Positions 12,474 to 18,433 of a DNA stretch of 20,000 nucleotides are shown here, piece by piece. The position numbers and the translations under genes are program-made. The notes below the pieces were generated by a model. It saw only the letters and a program-made list of their open reading frames with translations, ran no database searches and was not told where the DNA came from. Within the stretch, counting starts at the first letter, position 1, and every line of letters begins with the position of its first letter. Location: positions 53,302 through 73,301 of IMG/VR virus record IMGVR_UViG_3300009784_000011, one strand, 5' to 3'. The stretch is from an uncultured virus (IMG/VR IMGVR_UViG_3300009784_000011) (lineage: Duplodnaviria; Heunggongvirae; Uroviricota; Caudoviricetes).

Positions 12474-13418
12474 ATGTCCATCGAGCAAGCCAACCACGCC
12501 GAACCAGAAGTCATGGTGAGCCAGCCGGCCACCAAGATGCAGCTGCGGCTGCGCGCCGAGGTCGAAGCACTCAACGATGCCTACCGCTTCGCATCGGCGC
12601 TGAGCAAGACCCAGATGGTGCCGCGGGAGTACCAGCAGTCCTACATCCCCAAGAACGAGCGGGAGCCGCTCGGCGAGACGGCGATCCAGAACCTCGCCGC
12701 CGCGATCATGTACGGGATGGAGATCGGCCTATCTGCGGTGCAGTCCGCGCAGAACGTCTTCGTCGTCCAGGGCCGTCCGGCCGTCTACGCGCGCACGATG
12801 GCCGGCCAGGTGCGCCAGGCCGGCTACGTCATCGAGCCGGTCGAGGAATCCGACGATCGGTGCGTCTGGAAGGCGCTGCGCGATGGTGCATGGGCGTTCT
12901 CGGAGTGGACGATGGACATGGCCACCAAGGCGGGTTACACCACCAACGACATGTACCGCAAGAACCCGCGCGCCATGCTGCGTGCCAAGTGCATCGCCGA
13001 CGTGTGCCGGATCAAATACCAGGACATCCTCTTGGGGATGGCCTACACCGTCGAGGAGCTGCAGCTCGAGCACCAGACGATGACGCGCATCGAGCCCGCA
13101 TCGGTGGTCAAGGGCCTGGCCAAGCTGCGCGAGCTGGCCAATAACGGCAACAAGAAGGTGGTTGAAGCCGAAGCCCCGCCCGAATCCGGGCAGGAACCCG
13201 AGCCTGAACCCGAGCCCGAAGCCGACGCACCGGCCGTGGGCGCCCAGCTGGCCGAGATCAAGAAGCTCTACAAGGCCCGCGGCTTCACCGCCAAGGACAT
13301 GCTCGGCGACATGGCGCAGTACCTGTGCCGCGACGAGCCGCTGCGGGACTTTACCGAGCTGACCTACGGCGAGGCCGCCGATGTCATCAAGTACCTGACC
13401 ACCCCGCCGTCGAAATGA
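12474..13418 (+). CDS. recT: RecT-like ssDNA-annealing protein
   Basis: AAAIMYGMEIGLS..Q..QNVFVVQGRP and YRKNPRAMLRAKC motifs; directly after recE; SD present. Confidence 0.85.
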   Translation: MSIEQANHAEPEVMVSQPATKMQLRLRAEVEALNDAYRFASALSKTQMVPREYQQSYIPKNEREPLGETAIQNLAAAIMYGMEIGLSAVQSAQNVFVVQGRPAVYARTMAGQVRQAGYVIEPVEESDDRCVWKALRDGAWAFSEWTMDMATKAGYTTNDMYRKNPRAMLRAKCIADVCRIKYQDILLGMAYTVEELQLEHQTMTRIEPASVVKGLAKLRELANNGNKKVVEAEAPPESGQEPEPEPEPEADAPAVGAQLAEIKKLYKARGFTAKDMLGDMAQYLCRDEPLRDFTELTYGEAADVIKYLTTPPSK

Positions 13419-13639
13419 CAGACAAGGAGTTGCTGCAGTGCCTGATCTGCCGGCACCGTATCCGTGGCAACGTCTACGTCACCGAGGCGCAGCAGGTGGT
13501 CTGTCCGGTCTGCATAGGGCAGGCCCAGACGCACGCCCGGCTACACCCGGGCTGCCCGATTCCGGGTCACCTGGCGTCGGATCACTGGGCCAACTTGTGC
13601 TCCCAGGATGAAGCGCGGTCCATCCTGACCCAGCAGTAA
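13415..13639 (+). CDS. hypothetical Zn-binding protein
   Basis: ATGA overlap; CLIC...CPVC. Confidence 0.65.
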   Translation: MTDKELLQCLICRHRIRGNVYVTEAQQVVCPVCIGQAQTHARLHPGCPIPGHLASDHWANLCSQDEARSILTQQ

Positions 13640-13730
13640 GTACCGAAAGTTTACCCGCACGTCAATGTTAATACTAACAGTCTGGGGACAACTCTGTGCA
13701 TAACGTGTTAGTGCAGGTGGGGAGTATTTT

Positions 13731-13792
13731 TTGACGCGCAACACGCCGGGAATAGCCTTGAGATCAGGTTTCGCCAAGGTTAACCTGACCCG
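13731..13792 (+). promoter_or_regulatory. tandem sigma-A-like promoters
   Basis: TTGACG-16-TAGCCT (13731-13758) and TTGAGA-17-TAACCT (13758-13786). Confidence 0.6.
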
Positions 13793-13870
13793 ATGCCACT
13801 AGCCGATCCGCGAGGGGAGGTGGTGTCTAACGAGGTAATTCCTTCTGGGCAAAGCGATGTGTGTTGCATG

Positions 13871-13904
13871 CAAGAGGCCACGGTTCTGACGCCGTGGCCT
13901 CTTG
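13871..13904. terminator. perfect 13-bp stem-loop (terminator/attenuator or antisense-RNA hairpin)
   Basis: caagaggccacgg-ttctgacg-ccgtggcctcttg. Confidence 0.7.
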
Positions 13905-13923
13905 TGCACAAATGACAATAAAG

Positions 13924-13952
13924 AGGTTATCTAATAGATGGGCACGATTCAA
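13924..13952 (-). promoter_or_regulatory. antisense sigma-A-like promoter
   Basis: Minus strand reads TTGAAT-17 nt-TAACCT. Confidence 0.55.
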
Positions 13953-13978
13953 GGCGGGGCATATCAGGCGGTGTCCTG

Positions 13979-14827
13979 ATGCCCGATACACGACTTCCGG
14001 TCCGCTGGCTCAATGACCGCAGGATTCAACGCTTATCGTCGCGCGCCTTCAAATCATTCATCTGTTCGCTCATCTGGTCGGTCGCTAATCGGACTGACGG
14101 CGTAATCGAGCCGGCCGACCTGTCCCTTATTCCAGGCTTTGAACTTGGTGACGAACTTGAGCTGTGCCTGTCAACCCTGTGGCTCCATGTCGAGACAGGG
14201 TGGTGCATCGACCAGTTCGAGGCCACCCAGACGAGCAAAGCTGAGCACGAGGCATTAGAGCATGCTCGGGCCTGTGGTCGTGTGCGTCAGGCCAAATATC
14301 GCGCCAAGCAGGCCGAACAACAGCGTAACGCTACGCCAAACGTCACGGGTGACGTTACGGATGACGTTAGCGACGTTACGGGTGACGTTACTGGTGACGC
14401 TACGACCGGCGTTACTACACAGGAAGGCAGGCAGGCTTCGCCTGCCTGCTCTGCAAAGGACATACACACACAAGCAACTACCCCAGCACTACCAACAGAA
14501 CCTGGGGTTGCGTTACCGAGCAAGAAGACCGCGCGTGCGCGAGCAACTCGGCTGCCACAAGGGTGGGACCCTCCACGCAAGGTCATCGAGGAGATGCACG
14601 AAAGGTTTCCTGACCTGGACCTCAAGACCGAGCACGAGCTGTTCTGCAACTACTGGCACGCGAAGTCGGGCCAGGGCGCCACCAAGGTCGATTGGCTGTT
14701 GACCTGGCGGAACTGGATCATCAAGGCCGCACAGCAGGCACCACGGCAAAACGGTCACAACGGACACCAGCTCAATGGTGTCGACGAGAAGGCAGCAGGT
14801 TGGCAATCAAGAAAGGATCGCTCATGA
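13979..14827 (+). CDS. phage replication initiator protein
   Basis: N-terminal W..DRRI..LS..AF....W...NRTDG.I domain; internal iteron-like repeats; C-terminal ATRLPQGW.P...F.NYW.AKSG..ATK.DW..TWRNW motif. Confidence 0.8.
   Translation: MPDTRLPVRWLNDRRIQRLSSRAFKSFICSLIWSVANRTDGVIEPADLSLIPGFELGDELELCLSTLWLHVETGWCIDQFEATQTSKAEHEALEHARACGRVRQAKYRAKQAEQQRNATPNVTGDVTDDVSDVTGDVTGDATTGVTTQEGRQASPACSAKDIHTQATTPALPTEPGVALPSKKTARARATRLPQGWDPPRKVIEEMHERFPDLDLKTEHELFCNYWHAKSGQGATKVDWLLTWRNWIIKAAQQAPRQNGHNGHQLNGVDEKAAGWQSRKDRS
14325..14417. repeat. iteron-like repeats (TGACGTTAC core), probable replication origin
   Basis: aacgtcac ggg tgacgttac gga tgacgttag cgacgttac ggg tgacgttac tgg tgacgctac...gcgttac inside the initiator gene. 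Confidence 0.75.
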
Positions 14828-15099
14828 CAATCGAATTCCCGTGGCTGCTGCAGAAATCAACAGGTAATCCCTGCGATCACTGCGGCGAGTCGATTGATAA
14901 CGGCTTTTTGATATTCCAGCCCGTCGAGGCATTTCACGAATCACCGAATGGCGATTCGTTCCCGTGCAAGCATTGGCTTTGTCTGTCGTGCTGCTCGCGG
15001 ATCGTCACGAAGTGGACCCGCGACTCGGGTGTCGCCTACCGGCCCAGCCGCAAGGAGGACCGGCCGCACTACCAGAACCAGGAGGAACCGCCATTTTAA
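14824..15099 (+). CDS. hypothetical Zn-finger protein
   Basis: ATGA overlap, AAGGA SD; CDHC...CLSC; ends in EEPPF. Confidence 0.7.
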   Translation: MTIEFPWLLQKSTGNPCDHCGESIDNGFLIFQPVEAFHESPNGDSFPCKHWLCLSCCSRIVTKWTRDSGVAYRPSRKEDRPHYQNQEEPPF

Positions 15100-15719
15100 G
15101 CCGCAACGACGTCCTTGACGCCATCACCAAGTGTGTGGGCTATGACCCCGTGCGTGCACCCAAACAGTCCGAGATCATCGAAAACGCCTGGGCAGAGCAC
15201 TTCGAGCAATTCCCGAACCTCACTCGCACCGACCTGCTGGCCGCGGTCACGGAGTATTACCGGACACCGGGACAGCCGTGGCCGCAGCCGGCAGCGATCA
15301 GCTCGATCGCAGTGCTGCTCGCCGGCAGCCGGGCCGCGATCGAGGGAGCCCCTGAGAGGGACAACCTCGACGCCATCCAAAGCCTGTGCCGCGAAGCCCT
15401 GGGTGACGCGAAGTCCGGCGACGAACAGGCGCTGGCATGGCTGGTGCGCGAGTTCGACTACTACGGCCGCAGCGCGGTGCTGTGGGCGACCAAGCGCAAG
15501 ATCGACTGGCGCAATACCAGCCTGGTGATGTCGGGTGGTCCGGTTCACGGTGACCGTGCCGGAGTGGGCGCGCAGAACAGCGGGGGCTGGCAGAACACGC
15601 GCCGGGTGCGAACGCCCGATTTCATGATCCCTGAGCGGCATCGCGATGCGGTGAACAAGGAGCTGCGCAAGCTGCTCACCGAGGATGAGCGGTGGCAAGT
15701 GCTTGGAGATCCGGCATGA
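15093..15719 (+). CDS. helicase loader/inhibitor-like protein (start uncertain)
   Basis: SRNDVLDAITKC..YDP......AWAEHF....L...DLLAAVTEYY resembles proteins that follow actinophage initiators; no canonical start at the expected position. Confidence 0.6.
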   Translation: MLSRNDVLDAITKCVGYDPVRAPKQSEIIENAWAEHFEQFPNLTRTDLLAAVTEYYRTPGQPWPQPAAISSIAVLLAGSRAAIEGAPERDNLDAIQSLCREALGDAKSGDEQALAWLVREFDYYGRSAVLWATKRKIDWRNTSLVMSGGPVHGDRAGVGAQNSGGWQNTRRVRTPDFMIPERHRDAVNKELRKLLTEDERWQVLGDPA

Positions 15720-16060
15720 CCGGCGCCGGATCTCTCAGGTGCACCTGGTGCGGGGCGCTGCCGGGAACGCCGTGCATGGTCCCGGCCGGCCCGGGCGCCA
15801 AGAAGAAACTTTTCCCGCGCGCACCGCTGCGCCTGTCGAGTTACCACCCCAGCCGCATCGAGGCCGCAATGAAGCTGGATGGCGCCACAGAGGCCGAAAT
15901 CGAGCAGCGGGTGACCGGAGTGCTCGGCGCGGCGGTCAACGCCGCCAGGGAGATCCTGGGGGATCGTAAACCCACGACCTACATCGCTGAGCCAGAGATC
16001 AAACCCACCGAGAAACCACAAGAACCACAGGCACCGGAAGGAGAACCCACAGATGCCTGA
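15716..16060 (+). CDS. zinc-finger protein
   Basis: ATGA overlap; CTWCGALPGTPC...HPSR motif. Confidence 0.7.
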   Translation: MTGAGSLRCTWCGALPGTPCMVPAGPGAKKKLFPRAPLRLSSYHPSRIEAAMKLDGATEAEIEQRVTGVLGAAVNAAREILGDRKPTTYIAEPEIKPTEKPQEPQAPEGEPTDA

Positions 16061-17902: not shown

Positions 17903-18433
17903 ATGCCGCGCCGGAAACGGTCCGTGGACAGCGACGAGGGCTGGGAGTTCATCATCCCGGAGCGAGTTCCTTTGCCGCTGGGCCGGCGCACCGTGCGGCC
18001 TCCCGTCGAGCCGATCTGCCCGGCCTGCTGCACTCCCGTTGACATTGCTGAGGGCGGCCGTATCGGGCCTCACAAGGACGCAGACGGCCGTTTATGCCCG
18101 ATGGGTGCCGGAGGGCCAGGATGGACCGAGCAGGACAGCAGGGACGCTGTAGCGGGCCGCTCCGGCGGCATCTGCGAGTTCTGCCAGATGTGCTCGGCCC
18201 GCGACATGCACCACCGCAAGAGCCGGGGTGTGGGCGGTCCCTGGACGCCGGCCAACCTGCTGCACCTGTGCCGGGGATGTCATCGCCGGGCCACCGAGCA
18301 CCCGGCCTGGGCGCGCGGCTTTGGCCTGGTGATCTGGCGCCGCGACGACCCGGCCAAGATTCCCGTAATTCGGGAGAACATGACGCGCTTCCAGCCCAGC
18401 GACGACGTAACGACGAGAGGACCCCGGGGGTGA
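17903..18433 (+). CDS. HNH endonuclease
   Basis: RSGGICEFC...DMHHRKSRGVGG....NLLHLCRGCH; extra N-terminal CPAC...H...CP Zn motif. Confidence 0.85.
   Translation: MPRRKRSVDSDEGWEFIIPERVPLPLGRRTVRPPVEPICPACCTPVDIAEGGRIGPHKDADGRLCPMGAGGPGWTEQDSRDAVAGRSGGICEFCQMCSARDMHHRKSRGVGGPWTPANLLHLCRGCHRRATEHPAWARGFGLVIWRRDDPAKIPVIRENMTRFQPSDDVTTRGPRG

Follow-up and report, generated by a model that had tools for sequence, protein, structure and literature searches.

The initiator locus and its relatives

The stretch of DNA analyzed here (the window; 20,000 nucleotides) forms the end of viral record IMGVR_UViG_3300009784_000011, which has 73,301 bases and a G+C content of 65.7%. It contains a 282-codon open reading frame (ORF; 13979-14827, plus strand) for a putative lambda-O-like replication initiator, preceded by a 339-bp gap with a G+C content of 0.51 versus 0.63-0.68 in its flanks. 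The genes leading into this gap encode a ParB-like nuclease, a methylase, an HNH protein, a RecE-like protein, a RecT-like protein, and the product of a small ORF that ends at 13639. An earlier note, made from the sequence alone, described four elements within the gap: two promoter-like motifs that face each other, a hairpin, and a short ORF coupled to the initiator. Every string that it described lies where it had been placed, both promoter-like motifs included. Judging from the comparison with relatives, two of these elements, the hairpin and the layout of the mini-ORF, are real. The arrangement of hairpin, box, and upstream ORF is found in all six lineages compared despite initiators that are only 31-59% identical. 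Since the layout is kept in five distant relatives, it probably reflects real control of expression.

Homolog searches gave 22 proteins plus 32, 11, 5, and 12 loci. We dropped identical copies, namely, L003, L005, L048, L090, and L105 (the window's own sequence), and further duplicates: L006 and L008 (of L007), L009 and L011 (of L010), L066, L092, and L107 (of L049), L068 and L093 (of L050), and L106 (of L091). The six lineages, each carrying the initiator in full length or in its nearest form, are the window, L007, L010, L049, L050, and L091; values listed per lineage follow this order. Initiators of the window and its relatives are 31-52% identical in pairwise comparisons, and that of L091 is 59% identical to the window's over the N-terminal 110 residues. 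Synteny with the window, including the upstream position of RecE/RecT, is kept in L049, L050, and L091. Cultured mycobacteriophages (Xeno, BigNuz, Jebeks, and Hilltopfarm) share only the C-terminal domain of the initiator, or RecT; these four have tightly packed genes and no leader. Among 401 genomes of one actinobacterial order, a homolog is present in 5 (one of them, G010, is an unpublished genome that supports no other statement here) and the full-length form in none. Scanning viral contigs for C-terminal patterns brought up no additional lineage.

A stem-loop, a box, and a short frame are kept in position

The hairpin, recovered by an inverted-repeat search, has a perfect 13-bp stem (13871-13883 and 13892-13904) and an 8-nt loop, just as the earlier note had it; two G.U pairs lengthen the stem on the plus strand only. 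Its predicted energy is -29.6 kcal/mol, with a z score of -4.9 for the minus-strand 66-mer. Equivalents are present in the five relatives, the energies being -29.6, -27.1, -28.6, -32.5, -42.4, and -29.4 kcal/mol. These values exceed chance expectation: shuffles of the 520 nt upstream reached -25 kcal/mol in 0, 0, 1, 0, 4, and 4 cases per 100, and among 31 sources scanned, only L019 besides has a hairpin of -27 kcal/mol or lower within that distance. For the outer 11 stem pairs, all 66 cells across the six lineages are Watson-Crick; the letters differ per lineage, giving 2 to 4 pair types at each position, and the loop sequences are unrelated. Pairs were counted by script from the stem base, so that these cells reflect positional anchoring and not a homology alignment; MAFFT put the window hairpin out of register, and a covariance model was abandoned. 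YUNR loop motifs, judged by eye, are inconsistent across lineages, and Rfam 15 gave 0 matches at E values of up to 1 for 13300-14300 on both strands. Perfect stems of at least 10 bp are generally frequent in the 73-kb genome (10 distinct stems in 18 rows, where 20 shuffles averaged 2.1 rows).

Downstream of the hairpin lies a Shine-Dalgarno (SD)-like box, AGGTTATC (13924-13931, plus strand), whose reverse complement is the -10-like GATAACCT. Its degenerate form, AGGWTAYC, has a single occurrence in the 73.3-kb genome, counting both strands; in six of six lineages it stands between the hairpin and the ATG of the upstream ORF, 4-7 nt before the latter. Across the 31 sources, AGGWTAYC is found seven times in 274,928 bases (both strands), five of them at the leader position, and L091 adds a sixth. 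Further copies of GGWTAHC near the leader occur at chance level. Elsewhere, AGGATAYC and a start codon precede ORFs of at least 66 codons in 15 of the 30 other viral contigs with the hairpin-plus-box pattern; the box therefore appears to work as an ordinary SD sequence. In unrelated viral contigs (L058-L089), small helix-turn-helix genes and other genes are preceded by a GCCCCGG...CCGGGGC hairpin, then AGGATAYC, then a start codon (for example, in L072, L080, and L084), and L084 carries a doubled GGATACC, as do L007 and L010. In the window only, the 3' arm of the hairpin (CCUCUU) could alternatively pair with the SD sequence of the mini-ORF, a possibility that was discarded. A plus-strand promoter in the spacer between hairpin and ATG, or a leaderless mini-ORF, was discarded as well, because the relatives lack a TANNNT where one would be needed.

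The 13-codon upstream ORF (13938-13979, plus strand), encoding MGTIQGGAYQAVS, begins 33 nt past the stem-loop, and its TGA (13977-13979) shares an A with the initiator ATG at 13979 to form TGATG. Across the lineages, the distance from stem-loop to ATG is 33, 32, 32, 35, 36, and 61 nt. The frame is open for 13, 15, 12, 70, 80, and 6 codons and closes at +1, +8, +1, +4, -7, and +8 relative to the first base of the initiator. Thus, the overlap reported in the earlier note holds for the window and has a counterpart in every lineage, with a stop between -7 and +8 of the initiator start, and hairpin and coupled leader ORF are kept in position, not in sequence, in five further lineages. Thirteen open codons alone are not rare (P, 0.70). 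The product of the chance probabilities for the open frames is 0.0017, a value carried by L049 (0.06) and L050 (0.08). The encoded peptides are unrelated among lineages. Unconserved peptides, variable lengths, and a constant end at the start codon fit a purely positional, translational role. We set aside one related observation: in many distant homologs, an upstream ORF ends 4 nt into the initiator, which is uninformative because ATG-ACN (Met-Thr) creates a TGA by itself.

Pairing of the initiator's own SD sequence with the anti-SD sequence averages -6.4 kcal/mol in the six lineages and -11.1 kcal/mol in 30 homologs lacking the cassette (one-sided Mann-Whitney P, 0.005, for rows that are not phylogenetically independent). 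In addition, a local stem is predicted by folding to pair the initiator AUG (GGGCAU..CAGG / CCUG AUGCCC; 13957-13984, plus strand), with an unpaired probability for the AUG of 0.06 in the window, 0.00 in L049, and 0.27, a partial case, in L007.

Promoter-like motifs in the gap

The sense motif is TTGAGA (13758-13763)-17-TAACCT (13781-13786) on the plus strand, with a predicted start at 13793, 7 nt past the -10 element. Facing it on the minus strand (13924-13952) is TTGAAT (13952-13947)-17-TAACCT (13929-13924), with a predicted start near 13917. A further plus-strand motif match, TTGACG-16-TAGCCT (13731-13758), was absent from the earlier note; a scan for TTGANN-17-TANNNT did not return it, because its spacer is 16 nt. 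That pattern occurs three times in the 73.3-kb genome (both strands), and two of the three lie inside the 339-bp gap, against simulated means of 0.93 per genome and 0.026 per gap in what is a post hoc test. A sigma-70 scan lists neither TAACCT motif, since TAACCT matches TATAAT at only three of six positions. The "identical -10 boxes" of the earlier note are two copies of AGGTTA (13777 and 13924), each with an ATG 8-10 nt further on; the copy at 13777 lies within the palindrome AGGTTAACCT.

The opposing promoter-like motifs fare unevenly in the relatives. The minus-strand -10 element (TAWCCT) is kept in six of six lineages, where it coincides with the ribosome-binding site of the mini-ORF, whereas the minus-strand -35 element is found in the window only; L050 has a conserved ATTCAA, but 27 nt from the box instead of 17. 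The plus-strand motif is not conserved, and in L049 a promoter would not fit; a sense promoter would therefore be lineage specific. L007 and L010 share GTGACA-18-TA(A/T)GGT about 280 nt before their hairpins. This block, which contains CGTAACGCGGAGTA (L007, 2075-2104; L010, approximately 2083-2112), lies about 400 nt before the initiator, and the small ORF that follows it (56 or 94 codons) ends at the hairpin base. Block and small ORF are probably the promoter and the first gene of the replication operon in these two lineages.

A 40-codon ORF (13793-13915, plus strand) contains the hairpin in the window. Its ATG coincides exactly with the predicted plus-strand start, so a leaderless mRNA is possible; AAGGTTAAC, with an AAGG lead, lies 10 nt upstream as an alternative. 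The frame crosses the hairpin and ends 22 nt short of the mini-ORF. It is unsupported as a gene: its G+C content at third codon positions (GC3) is 0.56-0.57, it has no counterpart in the relatives, and no ORF consistently spans the hairpin in the four relatives compared for this feature.

A leader acting in cis, and alternatives

We put at about even the chance that the segment is the leader of the lambda-O-like initiator gene and acts in cis on the sense mRNA. Transcripts would enter from upstream. In the window they would probably start at the promoter-like sites at 13731-13786, and in some relatives they would read through from recET. They would carry the very stable stem-loop at 13871-13904. 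Ribosomes would bind AGGTTATC, translate the 13-codon frame, and stop at the UGA that overlaps the initiator AUG; termination-reinitiation, together with melting of the local stem that pairs with this AUG, would then set the amount of initiator. The stem-loop would mark the border with the upstream unit, as a partial stop or as a protector of RNA ends, and no working antisense RNA would be involved. G.U pairs that form on the plus strand only, located within the stem in L050 and at the stem base in the window, favor a role in the sense RNA over one in the DNA.

Several observations weigh against this interpretation. The 61-nt spacing in L091 breaks the rule kept by the other five lineages. The SD sequence of the window initiator, GGCGGTG, pairs at -10.6 kcal/mol, is not weak, and is the exception among the six; the earlier statement that the initiator has "no strong SD" is thus only partly right, as the window lies near the mean of the homologs lacking the cassette. 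The initiator AUG is unpaired in L010, L050, and L091, so that a stem sequestering it is found in only two to three of six lineages. Position 5 of the box is an invariant T, where extended SD pairing with 16S rRNA would want a G; this T corresponds exactly to A(-11) of the minus-strand -10 element, and in the window a well-spaced minus-strand -35 element accompanies it. Finally, the hairpin lacks a downstream U-tract on both strands in all six lineages, which makes a terminator role doubtful. The plus strand has 1-4 U within 9 nt past the stem, and a terminator scan does not list the leader hairpin; therefore, it is not a canonical intrinsic terminator. Such terminators do exist in the phage, unlike the leader hairpin: at 18198-18233 of G000 C1, a 15-bp perfect stem with flanking A4 and T6 runs has the form of a bidirectional intrinsic terminator.

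The earlier note proposed a counter-transcript model, which we regard as a possible but less probable explanation. A minus-strand RNA starting near 13917 from TTGAAT-17-TAACCT, and complementary to the stem-loop, would control the leader in trans. It would pair with the sense stem-loop and block translation of the mini-ORF and hence synthesis of the initiator; convergent transcription could also hinder rightward transcription, as proposed for lambda pR/pO. In its general form, to which we likewise give the lesser odds, an antisense RNA of about 50 nt in an actinobacterial phage group would shut off a leader ORF and a lambda-O-type initiator in plasmid style, with the 8-bp box serving as both SD sequence and -10 element. 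Actinobacterial -10 elements take the form GnTANNNT, and the reverse complement of the box reads G-R-T-A-W-C-C-T in six of six lineages. In five of six, this -10-like box lies 19-23 nt from the stem-loop, and the T at position 5, the same in all six, is explained only by a minus-strand -10 element. The window motif is ideally spaced and is one of the three genomic matches noted above. Stems that covary around free loops are expected if one DNA gives both RNAs, and the geometry, with a duplex ending just upstream of the SD sequence of the leader ORF, is that of plasmid R1. Lambda provides a phage precedent, with its leftward promoter pO and oop antisense RNA beside gene O and ori-lambda (PMC3985674).

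Yet the -35 element is missing in five of six lineages, and the site is not in the sigma-70 list. No minus-strand U-tract is found past the hairpin in any of the six, so a short RNA would have no canonical end. The box also serves as an SD sequence and is used before ordinary genes elsewhere, and the G.U pairs confined to the plus strand point to selection on the sense RNA. In the more distant L019 and L040, a strong hairpin stands 24-26 nt before the SD sequence of the initiator with no TANNNT on either strand.

It is unlikely, in our estimate, that the stem-loop is only an end signal or 3' stabilizer of the upstream unit, with incidental short frames and an initiator that uses its own weak SD sequence. 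The hairpin always lies 3' of the end of an upstream ORF: it starts 8 nt past the RecT stop in L049, 0-5 nt past the small ORF in L007 and L010, and about 230 nt past the previous gene in the window. Hairpins followed by an SD sequence and a gene are also common in other viral contigs, and hairpins lacking a U-tract occur elsewhere in this genome, such as the perfect 10-bp hairpin at 15706-15734, one of the 10 distinct stems counted above, which spans the stop of the ORF at 14964-15719. However, the distance from hairpin to ATG is steady (32-36 nt in five of six lineages), while that from the upstream stop to the hairpin varies from 0 to about 230 nt. The 70- and 80-codon frames that close at the initiator start, with their low chance probabilities, and the weaker initiator SD sequences of cassette-bearing lineages also speak against a mere end signal.

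Least probable of all is that the inverted repeat works as DNA, either as an operator for a dimeric regulator or as an origin cruciform: both arms change together, as a palindromic protein site would, and origin-like iterons lie only about 420 nt away, but the L050 stem contains what would be a T:G mismatch in DNA, the L049 stem has a bulged base, the sequence is not conserved as a shared binding protein would require, no iteron-like site with three or fewer mismatches is found in 13640-13978, and the operator-like words that recur elsewhere in the genome are only chance-level 11- to 12-mers.

The initiator and a candidate internal origin

The 282-residue product of 13979-14827 is a plausible replication initiator, as the earlier note had assumed. 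It matches PHROG "replication initiation protein" families at 8.7e-18 and 1.4e-16 and a "primosomal protein" family at 3.5e-14. Pfam and NCBIfam, both searched, assign it to no family; hence, there is no match to the IncFII RepA family. A PDB sequence search returned nothing meaningful, and Foldseek with the structure model gave no match at E values of up to 0.001. In the model (mean pLDDT, 66), a disordered linker (residues 119-185) joins an N-terminal winged-helix domain to a helical C-terminal domain, and the top structural match of the C-terminal domain is the single-stranded DNA-binding domain of DnaT, at a middling score (Z, 6.8; root mean square deviation, 3.3; 66 residues aligned). The start codon at 13979 is supported by the N-terminal motif M-[TPV]-D-x-R-x-P, common to 44 of the 47 homologous loci fetched.

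A repeat search revealed a likely origin within the gene (14323-14449). Some six to eight copies of the 12-bp iteron GTGACGTTACGG form a tandem array at 14323-14405, followed by a perfect 10-bp hairpin at 14427-14449 and an A/C-rich stretch. The array encodes the "VTGDVT" repeats of the disordered linker. At the same place, L050 carries the identical core CGTTACGG (+357 to +409) and L091 carries different 12-bp repeats (+328 to +368). Iteron-like sites number 28 across the window, a total within chance expectation, since 11 of 200 shuffles attain it; only the cluster at 14323-14405 stands out. The position of the array in the linker-coding part follows the layout of lambda O and ori-lambda. 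Binding of the initiator to its own leader was rejected, no iteron-like site at three or fewer mismatches in 12 being present in 13640-13978. GTAACG boxes upstream in L007, L010, and L091 were likewise rejected as iterons, as they do not match those lineages' own repeats.

Neighboring genes and source of the DNA

Immediately downstream, the ATG of a 91-residue Cys-rich ORF (CxxC ... CxxCC; 14824-15099, plus strand) overlaps the initiator stop (ATGA); therefore, the apparent 136-bp gap 3' of the initiator is probably coding. Upstream, the small ORF that ends at 13639 is listed at 104 codons, a length at which it shares 94 nt with RecT. Starting instead at the ATG at 13415, which lies within this frame and overlaps the RecT stop, would yield a 74-residue protein (13415-13639) with two CxxC pairs in a zinc-ribbon-like pattern. 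The upstream genes of distant homologs are unrelated to the 104-codon ORF. GC3 is 0.63 in the initiator and 0.63-0.75 in the initiator and its neighbors (13419-16052), versus 0.8-0.9 in most other genes of the phage; the initiators of L049 and L050 dip likewise (0.70-0.71 versus 0.82-0.86). The drop fits a mosaic module and suggests either such a mobile segment or a constraint from the internal origin.

The DNA derives from termite-gut metagenomes: six sequencing data sets from four studies, all of termite-gut DNA, are marked as its possible sources. A 127-kb contig carries the identical sequence (6,846 of 6,846 bases). A near-identity search of cultured phages gave no nucleotide match to 13400-15800. 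The best cultured RecT relatives are from Mycobacterium phages (48% identity). Homologs of the initiator's N-terminal domain occur in genomes of Mycobacterium, Tsukamurella, Microbacteriaceae, Curtobacterium, and Cellulomonas, while the cultured-phage collection contains no match to this domain. By these relationships the host is actinobacterial. The earlier label "mycobacteriophage" is not established, given the termite-gut source and the lack of nucleotide or N-terminal-domain matches among cultured phages.

Relation to known control systems

In plasmid R1 (IncFII), the initiator is controlled through CopA, tap, and repA, and its translation depends on a leader ORF. Here, too, a short leader ORF ends at the initiator start, a stem-loop stands just upstream of the ribosome site of the leader ORF, and an opposing promoter-like motif lies inside the leader. 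However, R1 is a copy-controlled plasmid, whereas the gene here belongs to a phage, resembles lambda O, and has its likely origin inside; the initiator is not homologous, the putative counter-transcript would lack a U-tract terminator, and the leader ORF ranges from 6 to 80 codons.

Likeness to lambda lies in the origin iterons inside the initiator gene and in a leftward promoter that may oppose rightward early transcription; the candidate short RNA would end in, or mainly be, a strong hairpin. Whereas oop acts against the 3' end of cII, the hairpin here overlaps no conserved upstream gene; the only ORF through it (13793-13915) is that of the window, with no conserved counterpart in the four relatives compared. 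We know of no leader ORF for lambda O, and the present leader has no sequence or Rfam similarity.

In pMV158, antisense RNAII acts on repB (PMC4485353). The candidate here would similarly be very small, a counter-transcript with one hairpin that targets translation of the initiator. RNAII has a U-tailed terminator as its hairpin and a 5' tail that spans the start region of repB; the candidate, in contrast, would have no U-tail, and its predicted 5' end at 13917 falls short of the mini-ORF SD sequence (13921-13926).

The leaders of IncI-alpha and IncB plasmids (ColIb-P9 repY-repZ and pMU720) are defined by a pseudoknot and couple a leader peptide to the initiator. A leader peptide coupled to the initiator is proposed here as well, with the target stem-loop upstream of the leader ribosome site. 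But there is no conserved complementarity between the loop and the initiator start region, a 5-nt match seen by eye being limited to L010; therefore, a pseudoknot is not supported.

Closer in host group, translated upstream ORFs in Mycobacterium tuberculosis are linked to conditional termination (bioRxiv 10.1101/2022.06.01.494293). Both cases are actinobacterial, and in both translation of a short upstream ORF would decide how much transcription or translation reaches the next gene, although there the setting is a host genome and involves Rho, and here it is a phage leader. By analogy, the leader would work like the coupling part of R1, yet it is a member of none of these systems, because its initiator is unrelated, a U-tailed counter-transcript is lacking, and there is no pseudoknot complementarity.

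Implications for phage replication control

Cluster A mycobacteriophages have RepA-dependent and RNA-based prophage origins, with other RepA proteins, and the available text of PMC7157519 on them gives no leader or antisense control of the initiator. In the literature, we found no such leader described for actinobacterial phages. To our knowledge, how temperate or lytic phages of Actinobacteria meter their initiators is essentially unstudied. The cassette of hairpin, SD box, and mini-ORF, kept in six diverged lineages, offers a concrete candidate for a control element and may serve as a tunable expression part in vectors for Actinobacteria. Cassette and internal iterons together mark out about 13640-15100 as a candidate minimal replicon. 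If the antisense promoter were active, counter-transcript control of the plasmid type would extend to phage lytic initiators beyond lambda oop.

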